From an uncultured virus (IMG/VR IMGVR_UViG_3300032295_003347) (Duplodnaviria; Heunggongvirae; Uroviricota; Caudoviricetes), in IMG/VR virus record IMGVR_UViG_3300032295_003347: a stretch of 64,000 bases of DNA. The stretch is one strand, 5' to 3'. The notes under the pieces were generated by a model that ran no database searches, was not told the origin of the DNA, and worked only from the letters and a program-made list of their open reading frames with translations. The translations under genes were made by a program, and so were the position numbers. Shown in pieces: positions 37,366 through 53,934 of the stretch (position 1 is the stretch's first letter; every line of letters starts with the position of its first letter).

Positions 37366-37392
37366 GGTCAGTTTTACGTCATGACCAGGACG
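37366..37392 (-). promoter_or_regulatory. 27-nt pseudoknot element (family B, copy 1)
   Basis: CGTC-CTGGTCAT-GACG-TAAAAC-TGACC. Confidence 0.7.
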
Positions 37393-37397
37393 ATTGA

Positions 37398-37724
37398 TCA
37401 CTCTGGTTTTACCAGAATTTCTTTAATAGATTTGAGTTCATCCATCATATCTTGCCGAGTAAAACCTGCGATTGGATCGTAACCACGTTCTGCAATTTTC
37501 TCAGGGTTTTCAGTCTTCTGGAGAATACGAGCCTCATCGTTTGCATCATACGTAATGCTTTCGTACATCTTCCAGATCACATCATGGGGCCACCCATTAA
37601 GATCCACGTCGTTCTCTCGTGCTACAGAAACAAGTGCACGCATTGTTCTAAAAAGAAACCTTGCTTTGTCTTCAAAGATCTCAAGGTAACGATCTTCATC
37701 AAGGCCGTAAGTGTCAATCGACAT
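37398..37724 (-). CDS. Hypothetical protein
   Basis: ORF MSIDTYG. Confidence 0.6.
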   Translation of the reverse strand: MSIDTYGLDEDRYLEIFEDKARFLFRTMRALVSVARENDVDLNGWPHDVIWKMYESITYDANDEARILQKTENPEKIAERGYDPIAGFTRQDMMDELKSIKEILVKPE

Positions 37725-37909
37725 AACAATCAAGTGCGTTGGTTAATGCTTCGATGATAAAGGATTTTTGTCCTTCTTCACCAAGGTTTGTCCAGTATTC
37801 AAGATCTGGATCTTTATTGTCCCAATGAATGTAGATAGTACAACCACCATCCTCTTCATCAATGACTTCCACCTCTAGCTTTTCAAACCAATTGGTGGTT
37901 AATTTTTCT

Positions 37910-38485
37910 TTAGTCATTGTCAAGCTCCTGTTGCGGCACCGGCAGCACCCAGTGGGGGAGCCAGTGGGAGAAAGCGTACTTGAGCTGTGGCACTCCAGGA
38001 TTGTCGATACTGATCAACCTCCAATCTCCATCAACCTTCCCGCACATCCAGCATCTTCCCTGATCATCGCAATCCTCTGGTCCCGGCAGCCGCCCACTCA
38101 CCGGCACCGGCTCAATGGCGGGGCGGCCCCAGCGGGCGAGGGCTTCTTGGATTACCCATTCAACCGACTTGTTTCCTTTAACGCAGTGAAGTGCTAGGTC
38201 TTGCATCTCCGAATCCGTCGGCCCCTGCGGCTTGGGCTGGGGCTCAAGTTCACCTTTGATTTCCCCGCAGTCGCAATACTCAGGTCCCTGCTCGCATGGG
38301 CCCCCACACTCTGCAATGGTGACCGGGCTGTATCGATAGACCATCTTGGGCTCGGGCTGGGCCAGGGCGGTTGCGGTGCGAATACGGAGTTCAGCTAAAC
38401 AAGACGTACCGCTGTACTCGTCTTCCACTATTTCAAAAAGCTCAGCGCACAGCTCTCGCCAGTCGGTGGAGGAGAGGTCAGTCAT
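37910..38485 (-). CDS. MTDLS-family modular hypothetical protein
   Basis: MTDLSSTDWRELCAEL ... ALARWGRPAIEPVPV..RLPGPEDCD..GRCW ... HWLPHW.LPVP. Confidence 0.7.
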   Translation of the reverse strand: MTDLSSTDWRELCAELFEIVEDEYSGTSCLAELRIRTATALAQPEPKMVYRYSPVTIAECGGPCEQGPEYCDCGEIKGELEPQPKPQGPTDSEMQDLALHCVKGNKSVEWVIQEALARWGRPAIEPVPVSGRLPGPEDCDDQGRCWMCGKVDGDWRLISIDNPGVPQLKYAFSHWLPHWVLPVPQQELDND

Positions 38486-38804
38486 TGGGCAGGGCCTCCA
38501 GTGCGCGGCGGATGGTGTAAAGATCGTCTGTTGGATAACCACTACGTTCGATTCTGTCGACAGCAATGTATGCTTGCTCCTTCAAGCTTGGCTGCTTGGG
38601 ACGTCGGGTGGTACGAAGGTCTTCAAGATGGCAGGGATTCCAGCCTTCGTTAATACGTACTTGAAACCACTCACAACACGCCTCCAGCTCCTGGTCGGCG
38701 CCCCATTGGGCGGCAGTCGTAAACACGTCCGCGATGCCGTACTTCTCGACAAACGCTGCCCACGCCTGCATCAGCTCAGTTGGTGGGGTAATAGGATGAG
38801 TCAT
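38478..38804 (-). CDS. HPITPP-family paralogue 1
   Basis: HPITPP, AAQWGADQELEACC, RRPKQPSLKEQA, TIRRALEALPND. Confidence 0.75.
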   Translation of the reverse strand: MTHPITPPTELMQAWAAFVEKYGIADVFTTAAQWGADQELEACCEWFQVRINEGWNPCHLEDLRTTRRPKQPSLKEQAYIAVDRIERSGYPTDDLYTIRRALEALPND

Positions 38805-39748
38805 TTCTTTTTGATTGCAGATTGCAGTTGTGGTAGTGCAATACCAGGGAATGGAACGTAGCCAGCCTCCATCATATTAAAGAACAGATCCCAGGCATGA
38901 CTCTGGTTGAAAACCTCGTTAGGTTTGTACGTACGCCAGTGGGTTAGTGGAGCCTGAGCACCAGACTTGGTATGCAACAGTACAAACTTACCCTCGCTGA
39001 CATGATCAACAGGAGGTGCATACCACCATGCCACACACTTATCAGGTGTTCCACTGGATAGTGCATTGCGTACCTCAGTGCGTTTGCACAGCAGCTCACG
39101 GTACTTATGAAACCAAGTCAGGTGGATGCACCAGGGTTTGAATCCTTCAATCTCCTGTTGGAATAACGAAACATCAAGAAGCTGACGCTGAAAGGACCCA
39201 CATGAGCAGTAAGGTTCAGGAGTGCTGGTCTGAACGCTTGAGGTGTCTTCCTCCAGCACAGACTCCAAGTCAATTGGCCGATCCGGGCCCCAAAGCCCAT
39301 CCGGCGCAACCAAATGTCCCAGATCCGTTTGTTCATTCTGGAGGAGGGCAACGACTTTGGCAGGGTCTGATAGGTGTATAAATTTGTCGGCCCAGTGCTG
39401 TTGAAGTTTTGCATTGGATGTCAGGTGTCCAAGGGCATGTGAATAGTTCCAACCTTTAAACATAATGTAGGAATTGTTACGCCATACACTTGGCCCTCTG
39501 TAGTTAGGACCAAGGTAAGCAAAGAAATCCTTGAGGCGATGTGTGTACTGCTGGAAAGAACCTTTGATTAACTGCCGGTCATAAGTTTGCTCACTACCAT
39601 CGCGACGCACCACAATACAATGATCACCTCGCAGATAAATACCAGCAATTTCGGTGTCATCAAAATCCTGGTACGCACGCCCAATGTTGGTACGTGTGTA
39701 GATCGCCGCTTGCGCTGCGTTAAGTTCCTGTTGCGTTTGGGTTGACAT
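38801..39748 (-). CDS. SWIM Zn-finger protein
   Basis: YCSCGSF ... WCIHL. Confidence 0.65.
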   Translation of the reverse strand: MSTQTQQELNAAQAAIYTRTNIGRAYQDFDDTEIAGIYLRGDHCIVVRRDGSEQTYDRQLIKGSFQQYTHRLKDFFAYLGPNYRGPSVWRNNSYIMFKGWNYSHALGHLTSNAKLQQHWADKFIHLSDPAKVVALLQNEQTDLGHLVAPDGLWGPDRPIDLESVLEEDTSSVQTSTPEPYCSCGSFQRQLLDVSLFQQEIEGFKPWCIHLTWFHKYRELLCKRTEVRNALSSGTPDKCVAWWYAPPVDHVSEGKFVLLHTKSGAQAPLTHWRTYKPNEVFNQSHAWDLFFNMMEAGYVPFPGIALPQLQSAIKKK

Positions 39749-39772
39749 GAGTTGAGTTTGAGTTGAGTTTGA

Positions 39773-39970
39773 TCAGACGTGCCAGGAGCTGTCGTCTTCC
39801 TGGATGGTAGCACGGCTCTTGGCATCCTGGTATGCTGCCCGCGATACACGGTACGTTCCGTAAGCAAGCGCAGCCCATGCCACAGGAGTGCCCACAAGAG
39901 CAAGGATACCCGCACCAAGTAGGCCAAAGGAACCTCCGACTTTTAGAACAGCTTTGTGCTCAGGCTTCAT
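39773..39970 (-). CDS. Small membrane protein
   Basis: Gly-rich hydrophobic segment. Confidence 0.55.
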   Translation of the reverse strand: MKPEHKAVLKVGGSFGLLGAGILALVGTPVAWAALAYGTYRVSRAAYQDAKSRATIQEDDSSWHV

Positions 39971-40051
39971 GGCGGTAATCCTTAATACAATCCATTGGTT
40001 TTAAATCAGCTTAAATGCCATGGTTAGAATGGAACTAAACAATTTAATCTC

Positions 40052-40279
40052 ATGTTGAAATTTGAATCATCTGCAGAGGATTTGTTTTGGCAAGAAAAGA
40101 TGTTCAGAACAATAAATGAATGTACATCACTTAGTGAGTTAAAAGAAATTGCCGTGTTGCTAACAAAGATTGCAACAACACGGCAGATAGCTATCAAAGG
40201 TTTAGTTAATGATGCCCTTGATTTAATGCAGGAGAATTACTCAAGCAAGATCAAGGACACCACTGATTCCATCAGCTAA
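40052..40279 (+). CDS. Second NblA-like protein
   Basis: S.EDLF..EKM.RTINEC.SL.ELKEIA.LL two-helix pattern; lone plus-strand gene with TAGAAT upstream. Confidence 0.5.
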   Translation: MLKFESSAEDLFWQEKMFRTINECTSLSELKEIAVLLTKIATTRQIAIKGLVNDALDLMQENYSSKIKDTTDSIS

Positions 40280-41291
40280 GGCTGCTGTCCTCACCAGTGA
40301 TTTCATCACGAGCAGGCAGAGCCTTCACCTCTACTGCATCCATGGTACGAGACACAGGAAGAATCTCGACACCATCTTTGATGCCATAGGCACCACCAAG
40401 CTTCTGTGCATCCTGCTTAGCATGGATGTTGATGTAATCATTGAACAGCTCTTGGTACTTCCAAGTAGATTCACGATCTTCATCAGGAATCGACAGGCGA
40501 TTCAATGATTCGACTGCTTCTTCTTGGGTGCTGTAACCAGGAATGTCAAAAGATTCAATTGCGCAGATCTCAACGTTGTTGGCTCCGCGCATCTCATTGG
40601 CAAGTACCGGAGTAAATACGGTAGTTGCATAGAACTTTTCATTGAAGCTCAGGGGTACTTCAGCATCCAGTGCCTTGCTCAGGCACTTAGACATTTCCTT
40701 TTCATACAGCTTGACTTTCTCAGAAACATCAGTACCATTCAATCCCTTCAGGGTCAGAACCATCGGGATCTTATGGGCACGCTTGTTGTCCTGGGTCAGG
40801 ATGTAAACCAGGTACTTTGTACGTACGCTGTACTTACGCTTGTAGAGATTGCCTTTGCTACCTTCCAGGTCAGCAGCAACCTTATCAGCTTCCCACAGTT
40901 CCTTGACATCAGGGTTGTCAAAGGTACCAATCGTCTGCCTCATCCCCGTGGTTTCCTCAACCATAAGGGGAGAACGAAGAAGGATTTGAATTCGAGGCTC
41001 AACAAAATTGAGTCCTTCTTCCACTGAAGTGTTGGGAGCCATGCCGAAAGTTTGCTTGTAGTTCCAGATAACTGAACCTTTAGCAAACTGATCTTCAGTG
41101 GCACTCCATCCGCAAGTGTCCAGGTCTGAGTTCCGCACGAACCAACCTCGAGTCTTGGACTTGTTGAGGGGCTGGATAGTGACGAGGTTCTGGTACCCCG
41201 AAACAAATTCTTTGGATTGAAAAAGTTTGAAGGAATCGAGTCCACGTGTTGCAAGCGCAGAAGTTTTCTTGGTAGTCATGGAAGCAGTCAT
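40272..41291 (-). CDS. Conserved cyanobacterial-type hypothetical protein in the recombination/replication module
   Basis: 339 aa; PRI.IL.RSPL, H.IP.VL.LKG..G. Confidence 0.7.
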   Translation of the reverse strand: MTASMTTKKTSALATRGLDSFKLFQSKEFVSGYQNLVTIQPLNKSKTRGWFVRNSDLDTCGWSATEDQFAKGSVIWNYKQTFGMAPNTSVEEGLNFVEPRIQILLRSPLMVEETTGMRQTIGTFDNPDVKELWEADKVAADLEGSKGNLYKRKYSVRTKYLVYILTQDNKRAHKIPMVLTLKGLNGTDVSEKVKLYEKEMSKCLSKALDAEVPLSFNEKFYATTVFTPVLANEMRGANNVEICAIESFDIPGYSTQEEAVESLNRLSIPDEDRESTWKYQELFNDYINIHAKQDAQKLGGAYGIKDGVEILPVSRTMDAVEVKALPARDEITGEDSSLS

Positions 41292-41313
41292 GGTTTGTTC
41301 AGGGTTTGGACGT

Positions 41314-41340
41314 GGACGCTTTTAACGCCATCCCGAGGCG
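41314..41340 (-). promoter_or_regulatory. Family B element, copy 2
   Basis: CGCC-TCGGGAT-GGCG-TTAAAA-GCGTCC. Confidence 0.55.
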
Positions 41341-41345
41341 GTGAC

Positions 41346-41585
41346 CTATACTAGGTCATTGCTGGCATCCTTGTCATAAAGCGCAGCCGCCTTTGACAAA
41401 GCTTCACGTTCATCCAGAGATTCCTGGAGCGCAGCGTAAACACTGTCTTCCTTGTACCCACAGCCCTTCATGAACATGATGAAGTGCTCAAGGATTTCAT
41501 CAGTAGTAACACCAGCGCTTTGGAATACGACGGTGTACTCTTCTTCCTCAAGGGTGAACTTCATGCGTTGATCAGTTTTCGACAT
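41346..41585 (-). CDS. Hypothetical protein
   Basis: EILEHF..FMKGCGY. Confidence 0.6.
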   Translation of the reverse strand: MSKTDQRMKFTLEEEEYTVVFQSAGVTTDEILEHFIMFMKGCGYKEDSVYAALQESLDEREALSKAAALYDKDASNDLV

Positions 41586-41796
41586 TGGTTTTTTCGATGT
41601 GTTGTTCACGGGCTTGAGAAAACATTGCTCCAATCATGTAAGAAGCAGTAGCAAGTTTTGCTACTGAATCAGCAAGTTCATCCTTCTCAAGATTTTCATT
41701 GCCAAACAAAATGGCTACGTGTTCCATAAAGAACTCATAGGCAACTGCATCTTCTAAACAGAAGTCTTCGTCAACGCCAGTAATTTGAAAAGACAT
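41572..41796 (-). CDS. Hypothetical protein
   Basis: 74-aa ORF. Confidence 0.6.
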   Translation of the reverse strand: MSFQITGVDEDFCLEDAVAYEFFMEHVAILFGNENLEKDELADSVAKLATASYMIGAMFSQAREQHIEKTNVEN

Positions 41797-41801
41797 GGTA
41801 A

Positions 41802-42611
41802 TCAGAAAGGAACTTCTTCAAGGTCAGGTGCGGAACCATACTGACCGGGGAGATCAGGCAGCCCACCACCAGAGCTTTGTGTCCAGGGGTCAGAGCCTTC
41901 CTCAGCGGTACGGCCACCCCACAGACTAGTGACATTCTCGCTGGAGGCAACGGTTGTCTGCGGTGCAATCGGCTTCACTTCCCCTTGGCCCTTAGGTGCC
42001 AGGGTCATGGACACCAGTTGGATCTTGGTGTTAGAGCGCTTCTCACCTGTGTTGGCATCCTTCCACGCATCAGTGATCAAACGACCCTGGATCGTAAGAC
42101 CAGTTCCTTTACGTGTGAAGTTAACCAGTAGTTCAGCATTGTTCAACTTATCTTCTGCCGAGTTCATGGCAAAGAAGTTAAACAGATCCGCTTGATTTCT
42201 TCCTGTGTTAACAGAAAGAGTTTGGTTGCAGATCATCAAGCCATCGGCAGTTGTCTTGAAGGCTCGTGCATCTTCTTGATCAATGTCCTTGACGCAGCGA
42301 CCGCTGAGGATAACTGTGTTGAAGATTGGGAACTGATCGTTAGCCGGAGCAATAATTCCTCCATGCAACGAAAACGTTCTGGACTCAAGTTCGAAACGTA
42401 GCTTGGCGCCGTGAATGTAGATCTGTCCACCTTTGGGTACTCGGGAAAAACGCTCGGCATTCTTACCGTACACATTGAGTTCAATTGGCGTTGGAGCTTT
42501 CTTGCCTACGGGAGGCAATATTACCATGCAACGCATGGCTGTAGAACTTGCGCTGATAAATACCTCACGCGGTACTTCAGTGGTCTGAGCGCAAACAGAA
42601 ACAAAGTTCAT
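41802..42611 (-). CDS. ssb: Single-stranded DNA-binding protein with tandem OB folds
   Basis: NTVILSGR, RKGTGLTIQGRL....W.D..TGEKRS; acidic EEVPF tail; second OB-like unit at N-terminus. Confidence 0.8.
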   Translation of the reverse strand: MNFVSVCAQTTEVPREVFISASSTAMRCMVILPPVGKKAPTPIELNVYGKNAERFSRVPKGGQIYIHGAKLRFELESRTFSLHGGIIAPANDQFPIFNTVILSGRCVKDIDQEDARAFKTTADGLMICNQTLSVNTGRNQADLFNFFAMNSAEDKLNNAELLVNFTRKGTGLTIQGRLITDAWKDANTGEKRSNTKIQLVSMTLAPKGQGEVKPIAPQTTVASSENVTSLWGGRTAEEGSDPWTQSSGGGLPDLPGQYGSAPDLEEVPF

Positions 42612-42633
42612 GTGTTCGAGAAGTTAGTTGTTA

Positions 42634-42660
42634 AGGCAGTTTAACGTCTTACCTGGGACG
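42634..42660 (-). promoter_or_regulatory. Family B element, copy 3
   Basis: CGTC-CCAGGTAA-GACG-TTAAAC-TGCCT. Confidence 0.7.
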
Positions 42661-42666
42661 AGCAAA

Positions 42667-44704: not shown

Positions 44705-44739
44705 CTGTCAATCAAGAAGACTGACAGATGTTACCTCAT

Positions 44740-45561: not shown

Positions 45562-45588
45562 GAATGAGTTTAGGGACATCTCAGGTCC
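45562..45588 (-). promoter_or_regulatory. Family B element, copy 4
   Basis: GGAC-CTGAGAT-GTCC-CTAAAC-TCATTC. Confidence 0.55.
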
Positions 45589-47593: not shown

Positions 47594-47595
47594 TG

Positions 47596-47898
47596 TCATT
47601 CTCCAAGTAATGCGCAGGTTTGATCCATTAGTTGAGGAAATACTTCAACAGGACAGATGCGACATTGCGCATGTTCCGTTGGTGTCTTGAGATGATCCCA
47701 TTGAACACGCAACACTTTCATGGTGCGCTTACTCTTCAATTGCTTGGTGACCACCTCAACCACAGTACCGTACCGTTGATTGCGATACTTAGCAATGCGA
47801 TCCTTAACCTCTTGTCTGATTGCAATCAGGCCATGGGTCTTGGGTCGTTCAGCAACACGGTCACCAACTTGATAAGTGAATTGAGATTTGGTTGTCAT
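47596..47898 (-). CDS. Hypothetical SH3-like protein
   Basis: YQVGDRV ... YGTVVEV ... VQWD. Confidence 0.6.
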   Translation of the reverse strand: MTTKSQFTYQVGDRVAERPKTHGLIAIRQEVKDRIAKYRNQRYGTVVEVVTKQLKSKRTMKVLRVQWDHLKTPTEHAQCRICPVEVFPQLMDQTCALLGE

Positions 47899-48236
47899 TA
47901 GATGTGAGTCCAGACTTTGCGGTTGACAATACGTGAGACGTGTCCACGGTTGATGCCGTAGATAACAGAGATTGCAAAATTAGTTTTGCCCTCCCGTTTC
48001 AACTTGCGAATGTCCAAGATGTTCTGCTCAGTCAACACAGAGAATCCATTGTTGGATCCTTGTGTGTCCGTAAGCTTACCACCTTTCTTGGGACCACGGC
48101 GGTAATGTTCATAACGCTCAATGGTACGAAACTTAAAGCCGCAGTCAAGACAGCGGCAGTAACGTTTGCTAAATGTTTCGCTGTGATCAGTGCAAGTAAC
48201 ACGCGTGTTCTTGCTGTCACATGATTGACATCTCAT
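47898..48236 (-). CDS. NrdR-like Zn ribbon fused to HTH
   Basis: MRCQSC.SKNTRV...R.CRCLDCGFKFRTIE; LTEQNI..IR...ISVIYGINRGHVSRIVNRK.W.HI. Confidence 0.7.
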   Translation of the reverse strand: MRCQSCDSKNTRVTCTDHSETFSKRYCRCLDCGFKFRTIERYEHYRRGPKKGGKLTDTQGSNNGFSVLTEQNILDIRKLKREGKTNFAISVIYGINRGHVSRIVNRKVWTHI

Positions 48237-48574
48237 TGTGGATCAATAGAGCAAGGTGCGTTGTCTTGTGGTTCAGCAACCTTATCTAATTGCAATGCAT
48301 CAAGAATATACAGAGTGGTTTCATCACCCAGTATCTTGAATGCATCAACAATTAAATCACGGTTGCGTTCAGTTGGGTTGTAGTAATCCAAAAGGATTTC
48401 TTCTGCCCGATCAAAGTTGTCATAGTCTCCAGTAAGACTTTGCACCACTGCACCAGGCATAGCATCAACGATGTTTGCCACCAGTGAGTCACGCACTCCA
48501 GGCCATGTCCAACTTGGGACACGTGAGACTACTTCATCAACGAGATCGAGATCGATGAGATTAGGTTGGTTCAT
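48233..48574 (-). CDS. Hypothetical protein
   Basis: MNQPNL ORF. Confidence 0.6.
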   Translation of the reverse strand: MNQPNLIDLDLVDEVVSRVPSWTWPGVRDSLVANIVDAMPGAVVQSLTGDYDNFDRAEEILLDYYNPTERNRDLIVDAFKILGDETTLYILDALQLDKVAEPQDNAPCSIDPQ

Positions 48575-48575
48575 A

Positions 48576-48603
48576 GAGAAAGACCCCGACTTGCGCCGGG
48601 GTC
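48576..48603 (-). terminator. Intrinsic terminator-like hairpin
   Basis: GACCCCGGC-GCAA-GTCGGGGTC-TTTCT. Confidence 0.6.
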
Positions 48604-48684
48604 CGAACATTCCGCATGAATACTAGACGGCTTCAGCACTGGTGTCTAGTGCATCACCCATCACACCAGAGGATCTTAACTTTT

Positions 48685-49182
48685 CTAAAGATTTCCAGCA
48701 GGAAACCCTAAAGAAATTCTATGCTCCTCAAGAACCTGCTCGGCTTTTTCTTTGGTCTCATACAGACCAAGCTCAGTTCTTTTTCCATTAATAATGATTT
48801 GAGTCCTCCATTTGTTGTTTGGTTTTTGAAAATAAATTGTCCCCTTTGGGTATTTAACATGTGTCCTAAGTAAAAGATTTTCAGACGTACTCAATAAGCG
48901 CAAGTTATGAATTGAATTGTTTGATCTGTTGTAATCTATGTGATCAATTTCTTTATCAATTGGTATATCACCATTGTGTAATATCCATATAAGATTATGC
49001 GCAGCATAACCTTTGTTGTTATAACCAATACGTATATAACCATTTGGACACAAGCATCCAGCTTGTTTGCCATAGCTAACACCAGGCTTAGAGATAAGCC
49101 AATAAAGATGTCCTTTTTCGTAACGCCATGTTTGCTTTATGGTGTCTTGAGAAAGGACATTTGTTCTTTGACTTGCACTCAT
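48685..49182 (-). CDS. HNH homing endonuclease with AP2-like C-terminus
   Basis: AHNLIW.LHNG.IP...IDHID.NRSNN.I.NLR; KWRTQI..NGKR..LG.Y; AT-rich. Confidence 0.85.
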   Translation of the reverse strand: MSASQRTNVLSQDTIKQTWRYEKGHLYWLISKPGVSYGKQAGCLCPNGYIRIGYNNKGYAAHNLIWILHNGDIPIDKEIDHIDYNRSNNSIHNLRLLSTSENLLLRTHVKYPKGTIYFQKPNNKWRTQIIINGKRTELGLYETKEKAEQVLEEHRISLGFPAGNL

Positions 49183-49541
49183 GTTGGTTCTGCTTGTACA
49201 TCAATTGTGGGATCCATCATACCAGCTGCACGTAAACGGTCGAGCATGTCGCACATGATGGTGGCATGAGCATGGGTTTGATCCATGAAATGCCTGGCAC
49301 GCTCTGCGCTGATGGTGTGGACATTGCCATTGGGCTCCACGTATTTCCAGCTCCCATCAGGCTGAGGATCCCCCTGGAGGGCCAGCCTCTCTGAGTTATG
49401 TACGTAGCGAAGCTCTAGGTTATGGAAGTCTTGTAGGCCATCCTGAGCGGTCCAGGTGGCGCCAATGTTGTAGCGCTTGTCATGATCTGAGTACGCATGG
49501 AACTCAGGGACGATGTGCTTGAAGCAACCAAAGATGTTCAT
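49179..49541 (-). CDS. Hypothetical protein
   Basis: 120-aa ORF. Confidence 0.65.
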   Translation of the reverse strand: MNIFGCFKHIVPEFHAYSDHDKRYNIGATWTAQDGLQDFHNLELRYVHNSERLALQGDPQPDGSWKYVEPNGNVHTISAERARHFMDQTHAHATIMCDMLDRLRAAGMMDPTIDVQAEPT

Positions 49542-49572
49542 TGTGTTTGAGTTGAATAAATGGTTGGTACAA

Positions 49573-49600
49573 CTGGGACTTATACCTTTCGGATGCCCAG
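49573..49600 (-). promoter_or_regulatory. Family A internal-loop hairpin, copy 1
   Basis: CTGGGC-ATCC-GAAA-GG-TATAA-GTCCCAG. Confidence 0.55.
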
Positions 49601-49609
49601 TGTAAAGAC

Positions 49610-49682
49610 TACCTGGCGTCGGATTCGAACCGACACTGAACGGAGCTTAAATCCGTGGCCTCTTCCGTTGGGCTAGCCAGGC
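49610..49682 (-). tRNA. tRNA-Leu(UAA), short variable arm, no encoded CCA
   Basis: GCCTGGC/GCCAGGT acceptor, ACGGA-TTTAAGC-TCCGT anticodon arm, GTCGG-TTCGAAT-CCGAC T arm. Confidence 0.85.
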
Positions 49683-49891
49683 TCACTTGGACTTACATCA
49701 ATTGATGTTGACTGCCAAGTGTGGTCTCGTGGCAATACCTCTAAACCGTATTGCCAACTGTCGTAGTCATCCTCATTGCGAGGATCCTGCTCACCAATCA
49801 ATACATAATCAGGTGTGCCATGAGTATGTATGTACTCACCAAGATTGGCAAGTGCTTGTGCCAGGAGTTGGTCGTCGGTGTACTCAGTCAT
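49673..49891 (-). CDS. Hypothetical protein (stop codon lies inside tRNA 5' end)
   Basis: 72-aa ORF. Confidence 0.55.
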   Translation of the reverse strand: MTEYTDDQLLAQALANLGEYIHTHGTPDYVLIGEQDPRNEDDYDSWQYGLEVLPRDHTWQSTSIDVSPSEPG

Positions 49892-50009
49892 AGATAAATG
49901 CCAGCCCTAGTATCGAGGCTAAGGCTGGCAAGCCTGTGCGGGCTAGACAGACTCTAGCGCATCTGCTTGAAGTTTCAACGCTTTGCCAAAATGTCCAGGA
50001 CGTGTGACA

Positions 50010-50258
50010 TCAGTCGTTATCTACTGGGAGTAGTTCCCAGTCAGGGTTGAGCAGAGCAAGATAATCGCAGAAGCCATCTTCGTCAAGAGGGATTTGTTCT
50101 CCCTCATCCAGTTCGAAGCTTGTTCTGCATAGTGCAGGAGCGTACTCATCAGGGTCGAGGTAAGTCGACTTATGGATGAGACGCATGTCGTCAACCACTG
50201 CTGTAACTGTGACATTGTAACCGTCAATGAGTGTGTGTTCAATAGCAAGGACTTGCAT
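50010..50258 (-). CDS. Hypothetical protein
   Basis: DPDEYAPALC. Confidence 0.6.
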   Translation of the reverse strand: MQVLAIEHTLIDGYNVTVTAVVDDMRLIHKSTYLDPDEYAPALCRTSFELDEGEQIPLDEDGFCDYLALLNPDWELLPVDND

Positions 50259-50261
50259 GAG

Positions 50262-50459
50262 CTACACCTGTGTGAGTTGCTTGACTTGGGCAAACTGACC
50301 TTGAGGTCCATACTTCTGGACAAGGTCAGGGAATGCATCAAGCAAACGCTGCCGATTCTGTGGATCAGCAAAGCGTAGTGCTTGTGCAATTGAGGATACG
50401 AATGATCCACCATAGGTGTCCATACGGGCAATCATGGCGTGGAGTTCGGTCGGGTTCAT
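50262..50459 (-). CDS. Conserved small phage protein
   Basis: YGGSFV..IA.A...AD..N..RL..AFP.L..KY. Confidence 0.65.
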   Translation of the reverse strand: MNPTELHAMIARMDTYGGSFVSSIAQALRFADPQNRQRLLDAFPDLVQKYGPQGQFAQVKQLTQV

Positions 50460-50480
50460 GAGATGAAGTTGAGTTGGACT

Positions 50481-50507
50481 GGATGAGTTTAAGGACATCC
50501 CAGGTCC
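50481..50507 (-). promoter_or_regulatory. Family B element, copy 5
   Basis: GGAC-CTGGGAT-GTCC-TTAAAC-TCATCC. Confidence 0.6.
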
Positions 50508-50512
50508 ATTGA

Positions 50513-50710
50513 TCAGAACAACTTGATGTTACGTTTGCTCAAGCCTGTACCAGGCAATGAGATAGATCCACGTACACCAGATTCTTTGGCGTTAAGTGTT
50601 ACCTGGAACGGACCAAGTTGAATTGATTTGGTGAATGATTTAATACCACGCTCGGTTATGTTAAACCCAGCGATGGTCTTATCAAAATTGATGGGTGATT
50701 TGTCAGTCAT
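50513..50710 (-). CDS. DUF4236-like small protein
   Basis: SGVRGSISLPGTGLS. Confidence 0.55.
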   Translation of the reverse strand: MTDKSPINFDKTIAGFNITERGIKSFTKSIQLGPFQVTLNAKESGVRGSISLPGTGLSKRNIKLF

Positions 50711-51029
50711 CGAGTTGCTCCAGCGCGCATCGGATAAGAGAAAGATCTAAACCATACCATCGGCCATCGCAGTCGTGGGTTGGAACACGATCAAGCATTT
50801 CTAGCGCCTGCTCCTTCAAGCTTGGTGGCTTGGGACGTCGGGCGTCACGGAGCCTGTTACCACCGCTGTACATGTATTGGACTTCATTACAGCACTCCTT
50901 CAACTCCTGGTCAGCACCCCATTGTGCTGCTTGGGTAGCAAGAGTTAAGCCTCGATCAAGAGGTGAGTTGGAATGCCATTGTTCCACTAAGTCCGGCGGT
51001 GGGGTGATGGGATGTTGTTGGTTAGTCAT
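50703..51029 (-). CDS. HPITPP-family paralogue 3
   Basis: HPITPPP, AAQWGADQELKECC, RRPKPPSLKEQA, IRCALEQLDD. Confidence 0.75.
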   Translation of the reverse strand: MTNQQHPITPPPDLVEQWHSNSPLDRGLTLATQAAQWGADQELKECCNEVQYMYSGGNRLRDARRPKPPSLKEQALEMLDRVPTHDCDGRWYGLDLSLIRCALEQLDD

Positions 51030-51232
51030 CGAGTTGATTCTTCAATTTGTTTAACTGCTTTGAAATCATCTTGAGTCATCTGTGAATAAATGTATTCACA
51101 AAATTCATCATCAAATGACAAGATGTCAATCAATACAATTGCACGATGCTTGTCATGTTCAGTTAATGCCGTGTGTGGATGAGCAACAATACGTGTTACT
51201 CTGTCAAGAATTGATTGGTACCTTTCAGTCAT
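51026..51232 (-). CDS. Hypothetical protein
   Basis: Coupled ORF. Confidence 0.55.
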   Translation of the reverse strand: MTERYQSILDRVTRIVAHPHTALTEHDKHRAIVLIDILSFDDEFCEYIYSQMTQDDFKAVKQIEESTR

Positions 51233-51527
51233 CGTAGGAATCTGTGTGATGGAGTACAAACTTCAAGTCAAGATACTCGGCAGTATCTTCATCTTTGGGA
51301 TGGTATGTAGCTACAAAACCACCACTGCCAACTTGTTTCTCAGCAATGCATTCACGTAGCAAAACACGTGCCATTGCTTTAAGTCTGGGCAGTGTTGGAA
51401 CCGCATACCCATTACCTTCTGTTGTTGCCCATTGCCAGTCAAGTGCTGACATAGCAATGTGCACTCTTTCAAAGTTGAACTTACCAATGATTTCATCAAT
51501 CATTGATTCATGTACTGACTTAGTCAT
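51225..51527 (-). CDS. Conserved hypothetical phage protein
   Basis: IDEI...FNFERVH..M..LDW.W ... SGGF. Confidence 0.65.
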   Translation of the reverse strand: MTKSVHESMIDEIIGKFNFERVHIAMSALDWQWATTEGNGYAVPTLPRLKAMARVLLRECIAEKQVGSGGFVATYHPKDEDTAEYLDLKFVLHHTDSYDD

Positions 51528-51727
51528 TTGAGGTTGTCAGGTAGAAGGGCTTGGGCATCTTCATCATCCATATTTGTCATGATGAATTTTTGTCCATCGG
51601 GGGAGATGAATCCCCCGATGAAACCAACCCCATGTTTATCAGCTGATTCTTTCATCTTGGCTACAAGCTGCATAGCTTGTAGACGCTGGAGATCAACTGA
51701 GTCTGGAATGCGAATGCTGTCGGACAT
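51524..51727 (-). CDS. Hypothetical protein
   Basis: 67-aa coupled ORF. Confidence 0.6.
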   Translation of the reverse strand: MSDSIRIPDSVDLQRLQAMQLVAKMKESADKHGVGFIGGFISPDGQKFIMTNMDDEDAQALLPDNLK

Positions 51728-51832
51728 GGTGTGGTGTCAAGTGGGATCTGAGTGTGGTCACGGCAAGTCTACCAGGTGGCAGCAAGCCATGACCACTGGT
51801 CTTAATGATTCCTTAATGTTGCGGTAGGGCTG

Positions 51833-52120
51833 TTAGCTGTGCAGCTTCTGGTGCTGACGCCATGCTTCTTCAAGCATCTCCTTGGATGACAGTGGTGGTT
51901 CACTGCCATAGCCAAGGTCTTCATCTGTTGGTTCCCATTCAAGTTCATTCTCAAGCATGGGAATGATCTCGTCATTTAGTAGAGAGAGCATGGATGGAGT
52001 CAGGTGTTGATCCATTTCATGTCTCTTGCTCTCACGTTGGGACATAGCTTGAAGTTCTTCAAGAATGTCTGTGAGTTTGTGGTACTCGTTAAGATTGGGT
52101 TGACGATAGGTAGGTGTCAT
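51833..52120 (-). CDS. Hypothetical protein
   Basis: RESKR..MDQHLT block shared with 52767-53132. Confidence 0.65.
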   Translation of the reverse strand: MTPTYRQPNLNEYHKLTDILEELQAMSQRESKRHEMDQHLTPSMLSLLNDEIIPMLENELEWEPTDEDLGYGSEPPLSSKEMLEEAWRQHQKLHS

Positions 52121-52276
52121 GTCTTGGGTTGGTAAGTGAATGAATGGTGTGTAGTACAGAGGTATTTCTTATAAATTAAGGTGCACCTCTGGTACTTCTT
52201 GCGGGGGGCAGGGGGTAGGCCAGTAGTTATCTGGCAATACCACCTGTCTTATTATGTTAAATAAAGGATTTAAACA

Positions 52277-52468
52277 ATGCAGTTAGCTGGTAAGTACGCA
52301 CAACAAGCCTCTGTCTCTGACGTTGTTAAGCTTGCTAAAACAATGATGCCTGGCAAACAACTTGCAGCAGGCGATCAAGAAAGTGAACTTGTTGCACGAT
52401 TAGTTTCTGCATCAATGAAGTTAGGGTTAGATCCTGGAACTGTGGTACAACAAGTGGTAGGCCAGTAG
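52277..52468 (+). CDS. Hypothetical protein, inverted relative to neighbours
   Basis: AAGGA RBS; stop codon lies in family D repeat 2. Confidence 0.6.
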   Translation: MQLAGKYAQQASVSDVVKLAKTMMPGKQLAAGDQESELVARLVSASMKLGLDPGTVVQQVVGQ

Positions 52469-52493
52469 TTATCTGGCAATACCCTTGATGAGT

Positions 52494-52700
52494 TTAAAAA
52501 CAGTTGTGAGGCGTACCTAGTTCTTTAGTCAATTGCTCAAAGGAATAATTAACTCTTGTGCCGTTAACAATTGTGTACATGTTATGGCTGCCATAAGTTG
52601 TACGCAATTCAGTTATCTTATCTTCTGGTATAGCTAGAAGATGAGGTCTACCATCTGAAGTAACTTGAGTGGTTTTGAAAACAAAAATTCTTTGTGGCAT
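52494..52700 (-). CDS. Hypothetical protein
   Basis: MPQRIF start after family D repeat 3. Confidence 0.55.
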   Translation of the reverse strand: MPQRIFVFKTTQVTSDGRPHLLAIPEDKITELRTTYGSHNMYTIVNGTRVNYSFEQLTKELGTPHNCF

Positions 52701-52766
52701 TGTGTTAATTGCGTTGAGCTTAGATGGGTAGGCCAATAGTTATCTGGCAATACCCTGGTACTTACT

Positions 52767-53132
52767 TCATTTGTTGTAGTCTAATACTTTTTCAAGCATG
52801 TCAATAATATCTAAGACAACCTTTGAGGTTTCTGAGGTTAGATGTTGGTCTAGCATGGAACGCTTTGCTTCACGTGCAGTGACATTCTTAAGGATAGACC
52901 GTGCCTCTTCTAGGTGCACATATTCATTCTGATGTATCTCAAACTTAACTAACAATGCTTCTACTTCTGCTAATGCAACAGGTCCAATATGCTTTATGTT
53001 CAAAATATTCTTTGGCTCAAGGTTGATAATGTCTTGAATAGTGTTCAAGCCACCTCGGTACAAAGCGCATTTTGTCCTCATACTCAGATTAGGACAATCA
53101 ATAATTTCTGTTTGTAAAGTACAGAGTTTCAT
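52767..53132 (-). CDS. RNA polymerase alpha-CTD-like domain protein
   Basis: LSMRTKCAL.R.GL.TIQDI.......IL.IKHIGPVAL.EV...L. Confidence 0.75.
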   Translation of the reverse strand: MKLCTLQTEIIDCPNLSMRTKCALYRGGLNTIQDIINLEPKNILNIKHIGPVALAEVEALLVKFEIHQNEYVHLEEARSILKNVTAREAKRSMLDQHLTSETSKVVLDIIDMLEKVLDYNK

Positions 53133-53161
53133 GGTTAAGTAAAGTCAGGTTAGTTTGAATC

Positions 53162-53198
53162 CTGGGACTTACACCACATAAGATGTGTGGATGCCCAG
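53162..53198 (-). promoter_or_regulatory. Family A internal-loop hairpin, copy 2
   Basis: CTGGGC-ATCC-(13 nt)-GG-TGTAA-GTCCCAG. Confidence 0.55.
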
Positions 53199-53274
53199 GG
53201 TTGATGCTGGTACCTACTATTCGCTATTCGCAAATAGCGAATGTCATCATAACGCTAGTGTTATGTGAGGTAGG

Positions 53275-53634
53275 TTAGATCAATCCGAGAATCCTAAGCC
53301 AGCTGTCGGGATGATCTGGTTCGACTTCGTCTCCACAGGGAGTGAGGCAGATGTTATCGAATGTGTACTCCTCGATCTCTTCGTTGGTTGGAATGTCGTA
53401 CCATCCTTCGAGGTCTTCCTTGTCCTGCGCTGAGTAGTTGCCACCGGCTGGGATCCAGTAGCAACAGAGGACTCCACGCTTGGTTCGGAAGACGTTACCA
53501 GTGCAGGCGATGGCGCCTTTCGGTGCGTCTTGGAAGTCTGCGTAGGCTTGGTACTGTTCTGAAGCTTCGTCTGGACCACAGGGTTCGTAGCCGAAAGCTT
53601 CTGCGATGAGCAGTTGTTCAGGTTGAAGAGACAT
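53275..53634 (-). CDS. Hypothetical protein
   Basis: C-terminal TPCGDEVEPDHPDSWL..LGLI. Confidence 0.65.
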   Translation of the reverse strand: MSLQPEQLLIAEAFGYEPCGPDEASEQYQAYADFQDAPKGAIACTGNVFRTKRGVLCCYWIPAGGNYSAQDKEDLEGWYDIPTNEEIEEYTFDNICLTPCGDEVEPDHPDSWLRILGLI

Positions 53635-53907
53635 GAGATGAGATCTCCGATGAGTGTGATTGAGATTGAGATGAGTGTGATGAAGAGAATGATTGGGTCT
53701 TCATCCCACACTTCAGTGCGTTGAATTGATTTGGCCATGGTCAGTCACCTTGGTAAGTAAGTGGATGTTCAACTAGAATCCATTCTTCTTGATTGGATTC
53801 AAACATTGCTTGCTCCTGTTCATAGGCAAGGTCTGCCATAGCATCAAGCAAGTCAGCGTTGTAGTTCTGATCAAGTTCAGTCATGGTCTGAGTTGAGATG
53901 GAACGGT

Positions 53908-53934
53908 GAGCAGTTTAACGTCTTACTCAGGACG
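53908..53934 (-). promoter_or_regulatory. Family B element, copy 6
   Basis: CGTC-CTGAGTAA-GACG-TTAAAC-TGCTC. Confidence 0.7.

Follow-up and report, generated by a model that had tools for sequence, protein, structure and literature searches.

The sense-strand RNA of an uncultured phage's early and replication genes contains six compact H-type pseudoknots, and the same small intergenic pseudoknot recurs in phages of several bacterial phyla. The stretch of DNA analysed (64,000 nucleotides, hereafter the window) belongs to a relative of Synechococcus phage S-EIVl. The original prediction had described six minus-strand elements in it; all of them are present, each (6/6) with a pseudoknot on the minus, mRNA-sense strand, and the observation turned out stronger than had been claimed.

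Pseudoknot Structure and Position in the Window

The window pseudoknots are 27–28 nt long. From 5′ to 3′, they consist of S1 (NGNC), L1 (C), S2 (U-R-R-R-Y-A), a single nucleotide, S1′ (GNCN), a UUAAAC linker, and S2′ (U-G-Y-Y-Y-A). The first helix, NGNC/GNCN, has 4 bp, and the second up to 6–7 bp; the junction nucleotide varies among U, A, and C. Invariant nucleotides include G4, C6, A13, G15, C17, and A21–A23 (numbering of alignment A2). The stems were as first described, with CGTC/GACG in three copies, GGAC/GTCC in two, and CGCC/GGCG in one. The proposed loop–tail pairing also stands, with its length understated, as TGGTCA/TGACCA and TGAGTA/TGCTCA both form 6 bp. A weaker second helix had been noted for copies 2 and 4, correctly, and copy 5 has to be added to them (26.9 bits); the remaining three score 41–44 bits (Table 1).

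Table 1. Pseudoknot copies and leaders in the window, the higher coordinate of each copy being its 5′ end; bit scores are those of covariance model R1, and flank distances are counted from the knot.
Feature	Position	Strand	Sequence and score	Upstream	Downstream
Copy 1	37365..37392	-	CGTC-C-TGGTCA-T-GACG-TAAAAC-TGACCA; 43.9 bits	TGA stop of ORF 37398-37724, 5 nt	ATG 37345, 19 nt (conserved 38-aa ORF, MFE...)
Copy 2	41314..41340	-	Stem CGCC/GGCG; weak S2 GGAT/GTCC; 22.8 bits	TAG stop, 5 nt	ATG 41291 of 339-aa DUF5895 gene, 22 nt
Copy 3	42634..42660	-	Stem CGTC/GACG; S2 AGGTA/TGCCT incl. U-G pair; 41.1 bits	TAG stop of family A DNA polymerase gene, 6 nt	ATG 42611 of SSB gene, 22 nt
Copy 4	45562..45588	-	Stem GGAC/GTCC; ambiguous S2 register, TGAG/CTCA or 3-bp GAT/ATT; 21.4 bits		ATG 45528 of GP88-family gene, 36 nt
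Copy 5	50481..50507	-	Stem GGAC/GTCC; S2 GGAT/ATCC (or TGGG/CTCA); 26.9 bits	TGA stop of ORF 50513-50710, 5 nt	ATG 50459 (65-aa ORF), 21 nt
Copy 6	53907..53934	-	CGTC-C-TGAGTA-A-GACG-TTAAAC-TGCTCA; 42.5 bits	Hairpin CACCCC-ACAA-TGGGGTG; no ORF end found in 60 nt	ATG 53884 (47-aa ORF), 22 nt
Leader 1	37346..37364	-	G-poor, C/A-rich, no Shine-Dalgarno
Leader 2	41292-41313	-	Equivalent of leader 1
Leader 3	42612-42633	-	Equivalent of leader 1
Leader 4	45529-45561	-	Equivalent of leader 1
Leader 5	50460-50480	-	Equivalent of leader 1
Leader 6	53885-53906	-	Equivalent of leader 1

Four copies were said to start 5–6 nt after a stop codon and, taking upstream ORFs of at least 40 codons, the spacers are indeed 5, 5, 6, and 5 nt (copies 1, 2, 3, and 5); at copy 4, the nearest such stop is 42 nt upstream. 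The predicted distance to the ATG (about 20–35 nt) was close to the measured 19–36 nt, with copies 1 and 4 just outside the predicted range. An ATG at 45579, within copy 4, is probably not the start codon. The downstream genes named were all recovered: the SSB (an OB-fold protein, PF00436), the 339-aa gene (DUF5895), and the GP88 family. Over 77 non-redundant copies, the leaders contain 35.7% C, 32.8% A, 25.4% T, and 6.1% G, and G-poor leaders are also found at knot-less genes of the same region. Strong compaction is plausible, since overlaps between neighbouring genes are frequent in this region.

Comparative Support for the RNA Fold

The covariance model, whose training set contained the six window copies, gives them 21–44 bits, while the runner-up in the window reaches 12.4 bits (E = 0.71); all six matches are intergenic and on one strand. 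Simple descriptors do not rise above background in the window: a 4-bp stem plus TAAA yields 19 matches against 21.4 in shuffles, and the descriptor with at least 4 bp of loop–tail pairing yields 8, the average of 40 Markov simulations being 5.75. The individual helices of the knot are thermodynamically marginal. Folded singly with nested pairs only, the copies give unremarkable z-scores (−1.16 to +0.29); the support for the fold is comparative rather than thermodynamic.

Among 75 copies selected without any S2 requirement, 93.5% of the pairing cells are paired, against 77.7% after shuffling (matched by 0 of 500 shuffles); with slid partners, 18–52% of the cells pair. Double changes occur at all five tested S2 pairs and at two of four S1 pairs. 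The wobble cells, 17 U-G and 17 G-U (13, 3, and 1 at three pairs), are compatible only with a sense-strand RNA. Loops pair with their own tails over 4.76 bp on average, against 3.11 bp for swapped tails (200 permutations, maximum 3.45). Among 192 unique matches to the pattern in IMG/VR and in bacterial genomes, 64.6% have an S2 of at least 5 bp (22.2% when permuted). These comparisons support a predicted RNA fold conserved in relatives, with both helices covarying. The covariation first noted among the window copies is borne out by double changes and G-U pairs, and the proposed phage-wide cis element before early and replication genes is supported as a conserved H-type RNA pseudoknot.

Gene Context in S-EIVl-Like Phages

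Phage S-EIVl itself carries seven knot copies. A search of related phages, as originally suggested, gave 81 sense and 2 antisense occurrences of the motif in 21 related viral contigs; over 501 kb, the count is 105 sense versus 4 antisense matches. The knot is confined to the gaps between cistrons and to the coding strand. Downstream, five gene families (SSB, DUF5895, GP88, the small MFE... protein, and a large D4 protein) account for 81 of 94 copies, with 26 gene families found upstream: the knot tracks the downstream gene irrespective of the upstream one. Of the 23 genomes or contigs analysed, 22 have a knot ahead of their SSB homologue. Across 29 junction types, the modal spacer between stop and knot is 5 nt for 16 types, 6 nt for two, and 7 nt for two; no spacer is shorter than 4 nt, and the spacer sequences are unrelated to one another. 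The knot-to-AUG distance is 20–23 nt in 37 of 77 copies overall and in all 22 SSB copies, a cluster derived from about five orthologous groups.

Changing upstream genes next to a constant knot and downstream gene (29 junction types), together with near-identical 28-mers shared by unrelated phages, could suggest a DNA-level junction for gene-cassette swaps between phages (PeSL- or boundary-like), to which the RNA fold would be secondary. This is hardly likely at all, as a DNA crossover site needs neither S2 covariation nor G-U pairs, and a crossover within the knot would destroy S2 pairing. The strict strand bias (105 versus 4) and the lack of promoter-like enrichment (26 sites versus 26.9 in shuffles, one adjoining a copy) also argue against it.

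Distribution beyond Cyanophages

The knot unit is not confined to cyanophages, as it is also present in phages of Firmicutes, Actinobacteria, and Alphaproteobacteria. It spans T7-like, T4-like, and siphovirus genomes whose hosts belong to four phyla (Autographiviridae, Kyanoviridae, and siphoviruses all carry it), and the cyanophage-trained model gives 27–48 bits in phages outside its training set. Phages of Mycobacterium, Moorella, and Paracoccus are among the carriers. In phages of Staphylococcus, Lactobacillus, and Geobacillus type, the unit is found ahead of head-scaffolding genes, immediately so in all five Firmicutes phages examined. Spacing of 5–7 nt after the stop prevails in the compact junctions of cyanobacterial genomes, as well as in those of one Firmicutes contig and of Mycobacterium phage Labelle. 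In cyanobacterial chromosomal copies, the upstream stop stays at 5–6 nt while the downstream start varies (31–68 nt).

What follows the knot also varies, and may be a U-tract, an adjacent Shine-Dalgarno sequence, or a ribozyme. Where a Shine-Dalgarno sequence is used, the knot-to-start distance ranges from about 0 to 68 nt. In one Firmicutes contig, a type III hammerhead (42–50.7 bits; gathering score 48.5) lies 4–5 nt downstream of four of five knots. A U-tract directly after S2′ is found in 17 of 53 bacterial-genome copies (background 6%) and 14 of 92 IMG/VR copies (background 5.3%), and at background in S-EIVl-like phages (3 of 47 copies).

These contexts bear on two alternative functions. 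In leaders without a Shine-Dalgarno sequence, the knot could act as a translation-initiation enhancer or standby element, docking on the 30S binding site or marking its 5′ edge and positioning ribosomes. Its association with the downstream gene, the 20–23 nt distance to the AUG, the unstructured, G-poor leaders, and the bulk demand for the downstream proteins (SSB, scaffold) are consistent with this role, which we nevertheless consider unlikely: the distance cluster reflects only some five orthologous groups, the distance is loose where a Shine-Dalgarno sequence is used, hammerhead-linked copies would be severed from the downstream gene, and other window leaders function without a knot.

Alternatively, the knot could cap the 3′ end of the upstream message, by blocking 3′-to-5′ exonucleases or serving as a terminator stem, which presumes cleavage or termination just past it. 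The 5–7 nt anchoring to the upstream stop in many unrelated contexts, the four hammerheads, and the U-tracts all point this way. Nevertheless, the window lineage has 26 upstream families against few downstream, copy 6 has no upstream ORF, U-tracts remain at background in the S-EIVl-like phages, no terminator-like site was called at any of the six window copies, and a terminator directly ahead of scaffold and capsid genes would be self-defeating. Such a cap, therefore, appears quite unlikely.

Relation to GP20-b and Other Known RNA Elements

The knot unit and the first half of GP20-b (Rfam RF03003) are one and the same RNA module. GP20-b is a candidate cis-regulatory motif from a survey of 224 motifs (PMC5737381), the main text of which does not mention it. 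As in the window knot, a 5′ NGNC in this half is followed by a nested helix around GNCG and a UAAAA-type linker, and the 3′ strand of the nested helix closes the unit. An Enterococcus prophage copy found by the knot pattern scores 25.5 bits with the full 62-position GP20-b model. Conversely, where GP20-b is located, ahead of scaffolding genes, the cyanophage-trained model reaches 27–45 bits (Staphylococcus phages 37 and StB12, Lactobacillus KC5a, D6E, A403, and the Enterococcus prophage). The two differ in that GP20-b is a tandem of two units, whereas the window copies are single, six to the genome, and precede SSB, DUF5895, GP88, and small ORFs rather than GP20 or scaffold genes; the Firmicutes units are also followed by a U-tract and a Shine-Dalgarno sequence, both missing from the window copies. 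The Rfam search first suggested gave a divided answer: RF03003 does not match the six window copies even at E ≤ 10 (gathering score 36.2 bits), and the correspondence is to half of the motif.

The T4 gene 32 translational operator comprises a 5′ pseudoknot and an unstructured leader, bound by gp32. By analogy, the small H-type pseudoknot and unstructured leader before an ssDNA-binding protein gene might be the operator of a trans-acting protein, for example, the phage SSB, uniting replication genes in one translational regulon. The layout, its presence before the SSB gene in 22 of 23 genomes or contigs, and the replication or recombination-module genes that make up the remaining carriers would fit; the T4 operator is mentioned in PMC10690425. 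Such an operator seems very doubtful. The window SSB belongs to PF00436 and is not a gp32 protein, the knot is at least 20 nt from the start codon, and its targets are many. With five carrier families and scaffolding-gene contexts in other phyla, the comparison with T4, originally offered, is weakened and a gene 32-like SSB operator unlikely. More generally, the unit stands before scaffolding genes and across T7-like, T4-like, and siphovirus genomes, and Autographiviridae, Kyanoviridae, and siphoviruses share no evident phage protein, so that a phage-specific protein partner is improbable.

The pistol ribozyme has a hairpin loop that pairs with a downstream segment past a UUAAA-type linker. 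The window knot resembles it in this pairing, and lacks its P2 and P3 stems and cleavage-site junction; the pistol ribozyme is an Rfam family (PMC4604425). The knot might also be a minimal aptamer or riboswitch that recognises some ubiquitous small ligand or ion and works with varied expression platforms. This is suggested by the several nucleotides that stay invariant across phages of several phyla, by the varied downstream contexts, and by agreement of such a pseudoknot with the rule of thumb given in PMC5737381 for ‘sophisticated’ RNAs. It is, however, very unlikely, given a single variable junction nucleotide without an obvious pocket, six or seven copies per genome ahead of unrelated genes, and, in the window, a 19–36 nt unstructured gap downstream in place of alternative pairing or an expression platform. 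The Rfam search of the window copies returned no pistol or riboswitch match, even at E ≤ 10.

Luteovirus-type recoding pseudoknots have a short S1, a 1–2-nt L1 with C, a 1-nt junction, and an A-rich L3, and are placed 5–6 nt downstream of the ribosomal A-site codon. The window knot is analogous to these frameshift or readthrough knots in size, layout, and 5–6 nt placement. Unlike them, it has interchangeable upstream genes; no slippery heptamer was seen at the six window sites, and readthrough of the upstream stop would meet an in-frame stop within the linker (copies 1 and 2).

A Possible Role at Cistron Boundaries

Four roles had been listed originally, with none preferred: an exonuclease block, a translation enhancer, a protein operator, and an aptamer. 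Our best guess, a tentative one, is that the knot acts in cis, as an intercistronic boundary or as a module that stabilises the mRNA. The fuller account, combining a shared RNA module, an intercistronic position, and a boundary mechanism, is the best available explanation, and a plausible one, although somewhat short of probable. As a boundary module of polycistronic phage mRNA, the knot would be self-contained and would fold fast, occupying the sole ribosome-free stretch, just out of reach of a ribosome terminating at the upstream stop; from this position, it is proposed to stay folded during translation of both neighbours. It could, thus, insulate the downstream cistron from a variable upstream context and protect it from 5′-to-3′ or 5′-end-dependent decay (RNase J, RNase E scanning), with higher and more stable expression of bulk-demand proteins as the outcome. 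It would be partnered by generic machinery of the host, not by a phage protein. The covarying fold, the strand and placement bias, the link to the downstream gene, the spacing after the stop, and the breadth across phages are all counted in its favour. Known 5′ stabilisers and nuclease roadblocks, such as Bacillus 5′ stem-loops and processed hairpins between T7 genes, are simple, experimentally defined hairpins. Like them, the knot is a local fold at cistron boundaries of phage polycistronic mRNA and goes with genes for abundant proteins; unlike them, it is a sequence-conserved, predicted pseudoknot.

Several findings count against a boundary module, the marginal stability of either helix alone among them. 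Sequence conservation across phyla exceeds what a roadblock needs and better fits a specific ligand or binding partner. A downstream hammerhead would sever the knot from the downstream gene, the U-tract after S2′ resembles 3′-end formation for the upstream gene, and the chromosomal cyanobacterial knot is fixed to the upstream stop rather than to the downstream start. G-poor leaders without a knot weigh against it as well, as does a host pattern of small numbers (5/150 versus 0/150), for which phage lineage, instead of a host nuclease, could also account.

To our knowledge, beta- and gammaproteobacteria have no RNase J. At E ≤ 0.001, matches were found in 6 of 151 genomes each for Bacilli and cyanobacteria (the seed genome being counted in each) versus 0 of 151 for Gammaproteobacteria, and no record titled as a beta- or gammaproteobacterium occurs among the 53 genome matches with an S2 of at least 5 bp. 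Four of five knot-bearing genome bins have an RNase J family member with a score exceeding the curated cut-off, which, with the contrast between cyanobacterial or Bacilli matches and Gammaproteobacteria, is counted in favour of the boundary module.

Architecture and Comparative Evidence for the Pseudoknot

The element described by the original prediction is found at all six sites on the minus strand (see the table of coordinates). As judged from its relatives, the first helix (S1) follows the consensus NGNC, mostly CGUC, and its 3' strand (S1') the consensus GNCN, mostly GACG. A single C forms the first loop (L1), and the second helix (S2) comprises up to 6–7 bp, with U-R-R-R-Y-A facing U-G-Y-Y-Y-A. 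One nucleotide (U, A or C) joins S2 to S1', and the linker (L3), which reads UUAAAC in the consensus and UAAAAC, CUAAAC or UUAAAAGC in variants, leads into the 3' strand of the second helix (S2'). An L1 of 1 nt across a 6-bp S2 and an L3 of 6 nt across a 4-bp S1 are feasible, judging by solved pseudoknots. Many copies embed an AUG, from which a mini-ORF might start. This reading was discarded, since U, A and C all occur at the junction nucleotide, and the AUG is missing from copies 3 and 6.

Simple pattern counts in the window do not separate the element from chance. A descriptor consisting of a 4-bp stem and TAAA gave 19 matches vs. 21.4 in shuffles, and the same descriptor with a loop-tail pairing of 4 bp or more gave 8 matches, where 40 Markov simulations averaged 5.75. 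Such loose counts, being no better than chance, were dropped as evidence. Nested folding energies of the single copies are ordinary, and nested thermodynamic folding is uninformative. The case for the knot is a comparative one, argued from relatives at the level of sequence.

One of these is Synechococcus phage S-EIVl (host Synechococcus PCCC-A2c), the only record matched in the phage collection, with 76% identity over the polymerase and single-stranded DNA-binding protein (SSB) region. Its early and replication region carries seven copies, each in gene sense. In 21 IMG/VR contigs around SSB homologues (358 kb), family-type matches number 81 in sense and 2 in antisense. A wider set, picked by S1 and the TAAA linker alone and with no condition on S2, counts 105 sense vs. 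4 antisense matches in 501 kb and contains 75 distinct sequences, 65 of which have an S2 of at least 4 bp. Loops pair with their own tails over 4.76 bp, vs. 3.11 bp with swapped tails (maximum 3.45 in 200 permutations).

In the alignment of these 75 rows, 93.5% of cells are paired vs. 77.7% after shuffling, a value reached by none of 500 shuffles, and 18–52% when the partners are slid; per helix, the figures are 99.7% for S1 and 88.3% for S2. Double changes occur in seven of the nine pairs tested, including all five S2 pairs. At S1 position 1, for instance, C-G (55), G-C (10), U-A (6) and A-U (2) are found, and at position 3, U-A (66), A-U (4) and C-G (2). There are 17 U-G cells and 17 G-U cells (13, 3 and 1 at three pairs), which would be A-C mismatches on the opposite strand; the fold, therefore, belongs to the sense-strand RNA. 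Loop-tail pairing is thus kept in homologues and both helices covary, as had been anticipated. Two helices, the loop of the first pairing 3' of it, and covariation in both constitute an H-type pseudoknot, and the alignment shows this predicted RNA fold to be under selection.

A covariance model trained on cyanophage copies (R1) was built from 73 rows. Two non-family rows, L016_17061 and L018_5334, were left out of the 73-row alignment and of R1, and are counted in the 75-row pairing figures. In the window, R1 returns exactly the six copies, at 21.4–43.9 bits, all six being in the training set; the next best match reaches 12.4 bits (E 0.71), and none lies in the late-gene regions. Independent support comes from strong R1 scores in phages outside the training set.

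Coordinates of the pseudoknot copies and of other features in the window
Feature	Position	Strand	Remarks
Copy 1	37392 (5' end)	-	Canonical
Copy 2	41340 (5' end)	-	7-nt loop; weaker S2 of ambiguous register
Copy 3	42660 (5' end)	-	Canonical
Copy 4	45588 (5' end)	-	7-nt loop; weaker S2 of ambiguous register
Copy 5	50507 (5' end)	-	7-nt loop; weaker S2 of ambiguous register
Copy 6	53934 (5' end)	-	Canonical
Descriptor match, not family	7002	-	Inside DUF3310 ORF; no R1 match at E <= 10
Descriptor match, not family	58327	-	No R1 match at E <= 10
S-adenosylmethionine decarboxylase	21148-21405	-	Fragment-sized; auxiliary gene common with S-EIVl
abiF RNA (Rfam RF03085)	28553-28589	+	52.2 bits vs. gathering score 37
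Ferritin/Dps-like protein	30578-31132	-	Auxiliary gene common with S-EIVl
Hairpin CTGGGCATCC ... TAAGTCCCAG	49573-49600	-	
tRNA gene (RF00005)	49610-49682	-	49.7 bits; inside early region
28-nt repeat GGTATTGCCAGATAACTAYTGGCCTACC	52214-52241	-	Early-region gap
28-nt repeat GGTATTGCCAGATAACTAYTGGCCTACC	52456-52483	-	Early-region gap
28-nt repeat GGTATTGCCAGATAACTAYTGGCCTACC	52727-52754	-	Early-region gap
121-aa ORF	52767-53132	-	RNA polymerase alpha subunit C-terminal domain (PF03118, E 1e-6)
Hairpin CTGGGCATCC ... TAAGTCCCAG	53162-53198	-	
G+C hairpin, then TTGCCTCC..GGAGATAGGCACC	56926-56949	-	Very early gap
TTGCCTCC..GGAGATAGGCACC element, third related copy	near 57210-57270		
G+C hairpin, then TTGCCTCC..GGAGATAGGCACC	57585-57608	-	Very early gap

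Distribution across Phages and Bacterial Genomes

A pattern scan yielded at least 138 stretches in IMG/VR and 78 loci in a set of one genome per bacterial species. Among the matches listed, 192 are unique and were chosen without regard to S2; an S2 of at least 5 bp is present in 64.6% of them vs. 22.2% after permutation (maximum 26.6%). Genome records with a good S2 are mostly Firmicutes bins, together with Saccharibacteria, Chloroflexi, Phytoplasma and cyanobacteria, and none of these records is titled as a beta- or gammaproteobacterium. Where one genome holds several copies, all of them share a contig and a strand; on one contig, nine copies occur within an ORF-poor stretch of 5 kb. R1, run at E <= 0.001 on 151 genomes per class, matched in 6 genomes of Bacilli and 6 of cyanobacteria, both counts including the seed genome, and in none of Gammaproteobacteria.

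The phage collection was searched by BLAST, followed by a check with R1. In five of five cases (Staphylococcus phages 37 and StB12, Lactobacillus phage KC5a, the deep-sea thermophilic phage D6E and Anoxybacillus phage A403), the unit lies in the gap that immediately precedes the head-scaffolding gene. R1 also confirmed it in Mycobacterium phage Labelle, where a stop codon precedes it by 6 nt, in Moorella phage MTATph1 (two copies), Nostoc phage NMeng1, Paracoccus phage ParKuw1 and the T4-like Synechococcus phage S-H35. A BLAST match in Xanthomonas phage XcP1 is not a family member by R1. The unit is used by very different phages, whose hosts belong to four phyla, and spans T4-like, T7-like and siphovirus genomes of cyanobacteria, Firmicutes, Actinobacteria and Alphaproteobacteria hosts. 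The search of related phages suggested in the original prediction thus finds the element in S-EIVl and in the 21 contigs; it is also present in phages on which the model had not been trained.

PHROGs put a name to almost none of 33 ORFs around Firmicutes copies; only the downstream ORF in Enterococcus matched a head-scaffolding family. tRNA adjacency was considered as a theme and rejected, ARAGORN tRNAs being present in 9 of 216 IMG/VR and genome loci and never beside a good-S2 copy. A pseudo-tRNA is annotated next in line after the copy in the Nostoc phage, but found no confirmation.

A cyanobacterial locus (L272, ~1496–1536; genome G314, contig 1, 590270–593302) contains a CRISPR array of 16 repeats spaced 71–79 nt. 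One of its spacers holds a complete pseudoknot unit, and the cyanobacterium, therefore, took this spacer from the conserved phage element.

Relation to Known RNA Elements

Neither at gathering scores nor at E <= 10 does any Rfam 15 family match the six sites, so the Rfam search proposed for the element came back empty; the seven Rfam matches at E <= 10 in 37000–54500 all lie elsewhere. Covariance models of small pseudoknot riboswitches and ribozymes (preQ1, SAM-II/V, fluoride, guanidine-III, pistol and others) likewise gave no match at the copies.

The closest known entity is GP20-b (RF03003), given the shared architecture of its first unit and the R1 matches at GP20-b positions in six Firmicutes phages or prophages. 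The printed GP20-b consensus is a tandem of two units of the knot architecture, and its unit 1 (NGNC, a nested helix, GNCG and an A-rich linker) is shared by the window copies. Two Enterococcus copies, each with a second knot-like unit, align to all 62 positions of the RF03003 model, with scores of 25.5 and 17.8 bits that fall short of the gathering score (36.2 bits). The window copies, in contrast, do not match this model even at E <= 10. GP20-b consists of two tandem units directly upstream of the GP20/scaffolding gene, whereas the window copies are single units before SSB, DUF5895, GP88 and small ORFs; they fall outside GP20-b on score, tandem structure and gene context. On architectural grounds, the unit is best described as the single-unit, multi-copy form of this catalogued, uncharacterised motif. 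Tandem knot pairs 4 to ~60 nt apart are also present in an IMG/VR locus (L079) and in locus L255 (11037–11154), so arrangements other than GP20-b exist.

GP20-b is classed as a candidate cis-regulatory RNA and receives only passing mention in the literature searched; the main text of the survey defining it (PMC5737381) does not mention it. No description of the unit was found in the literature on S-EIVl, cyanophage pseudoknots, GP20-b or hammerhead-linked elements, and the survey supplement may differ. The core decamer of the knot does not occur in the searched supplement files of PMC10690425, which may still hold the motif. The reading as a two-helix covarying pseudoknot, the 5-nt rule detailed below and the cross-phylum distribution appear undescribed in the literature searched, and further supplements could change that. 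Until now, catalogues have listed the knot only as one half of a candidate motif that precedes scaffold genes and is itself uncharacterised; its multi-copy, single-unit form shows that the unit itself is the functional module.

Other known systems fit less well. The comparison with the T4 gene 32 pseudoknot, drawn in the original prediction, is weakened: that autogenous operator is confined to the mRNA of the gp32-type SSB itself, whereas five downstream families carry the knot here, and the window SSB matches PF00436 and not the gp32 type. A recoding stimulator calls for a slippery site or leaky stop 5–9 nt upstream and an extended ORF beyond it. The stop-to-knot spacing in the window (5–6 nt) would suit this, but the six sites share no slippery heptamer, and in copies 1 and 2 reading past the upstream stop meets an in-frame stop within the linker. 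PeSL-type cassettes need a conserved early promoter in the repeat, which the knot lacks, and no conserved hexamers were found in the 5' flanks of the copies. A promoter or terminator reading was rejected on consensus scans: promoter-like sites number 26 vs. 26.9 expected, just one of them (41377–41348) abutting a copy, and none of 21 terminator-like sites in 37000–56500 coincides with a copy.

Position between Genes

Positions were analyzed for 94 copies, of which 77 are non-redundant; they come from the window, from the 21 contigs and from S-EIVl. Five gene families follow 81 of the 94: SSB (22), a conserved 38-aa protein beginning MFE... (20), DUF5895 (17), GP88 (13) and the large protein family D4 (9). 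The upstream genes, in turn, span 26 families. The knot is intercistronic, always on the coding strand, and tied to specific downstream genes.

The upstream stop codon stands 5 nt before S1 in 36 of the 77 non-redundant copies and 4–7 nt before it in 48. Sorted into 29 junction types, each a combination of an upstream and a downstream family, the copies have a modal spacer of 5 nt in 16 types, 6 nt in two and 7 nt in two, and it is never shorter than 4 nt. The spacer sequences are unrelated, so that only length is constrained. As the genes of the early/replication region are tightly packed and often overlapping, the simplest reading of this pile-up is a hard lower limit. The mRNA helicase site of the ribosome lies ~11 nt from the first P-site nucleotide; with a stop codon in the A site and 5 nt of spacer, S1 begins at the first position that a terminating ribosome leaves wound. 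Taken with this footprint, the spacing shows a knot kept just outside the reach of the terminating ribosome, and the 5-nt rule ties the knot to ribosome footprints.

Towards the downstream gene, the distance from knot to start is mostly 20–23 nt (37 of 77 copies), a cluster that stems from few orthologous groups. The intervening leader contains 6.1% G and 35.7% C, with no Shine-Dalgarno sequence, and knot-less genes of the same region have similar leaders. In cyanobacterial genomes, four of five further gene-gap copies lie 5–6 nt after a stop and the fifth at 30 nt; the downstream ORF, where called, is Shine-Dalgarno-led and starts 31–68 nt later.

Possible Functions

The spread over very different phages makes a phage-specific protein partner unlikely, and RNA polymerase is an unlikely partner because T7-like phages carry their own. 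The remaining candidates are machinery universal among hosts (ribosome, RNases), a ligand, and the fold as such.

A tentative proposal, which we would put at rather less than an even chance, is that the knot acts as a boundary module, insulating the leader and blocking decay from the 5' side. It would stay folded between translating ribosomes and keep changes in the upstream context from affecting the unstructured leader; with decay from the 5' side blocked, the output of bulk proteins (SSB, scaffold) would be raised. Judging by the distribution of RNase J among hosts, the knot is seemingly restricted to RNase J hosts, and an RNase J family member scores above the curated cut-off in four of five knot-bearing bins. 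This apparent restriction fits a boundary module, on small numbers.

Other observations point instead to a possible cap at the 3' end of the upstream message. In locus L253 (genome G001, contig 157; phage-like Firmicutes), five units stand between small ORFs, four of them 6–12 nt after a stop and 4–5 nt before a type III hammerhead ribozyme (42–50.7 bits vs. a gathering score of 48.5), the fifth having no ribozyme. S2' runs straight into a U-tract in 17 of 53 genome copies (background 6%), in 14 of 92 IMG/VR copies among the matches listed (background 5.3%) and in 3 of 47 S-EIVl-like copies. These hammerhead and U-tract contexts favour a 3'-end cap, and so does the fact that the knot is coupled more closely to the stop codon before it than to the start codon behind it. 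The window copies, however, do not have the make-up of intrinsic terminators (a G+C-rich stem with a U-tract immediately behind it), which is seen in that subset elsewhere (17 of 53). The knot may also act as punctuation that serves both sides. Positioning in translation initiation ranks lower, as do roles as protein operator, small aptamer or recombination junction.

A more far-reaching reading, which we consider unlikely, takes the knot as a minimal functional RNA, a universal intercistronic control device shared by phages of at least four phyla and endowed with a specific activity rather than a passive structure: an RNase J-type block, ribosome binding or ligand sensing. The knot would then sit at the first nucleotide that a terminating ribosome leaves folded, the RNase J block would be directional, as a bacterial counterpart of viral exonuclease-resistant RNAs, GP20-b would be just one tandem arrangement, and any ligand would be ubiquitous.

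Should the knot set the stability or translation of mRNA segments, it would explain how expression levels are set within long phage operons, and it would offer a ready-made 28-nt insulator part for synthetic operons. Staphylococcus and Lactobacillus phages and Bacillus nucleases are indicated as tractable experimental systems.

Other Features of the Window

Several further elements lie in the window. The hairpins framed by CTGGGCATCC and TAAGTCCCAG each precede an ATG by ~25–30 nt, with a G-poor leader between, and constitute a second type of leader structure in this phage. The TTGCCTCC..GGAGATAGGCACC elements form a family distinct from the pseudoknot. The GGTATTGCCAGATAACTAYTGGCCTACC repeats adjoin the alpha-CTD-like gene, and could be a candidate operator or promoter set.
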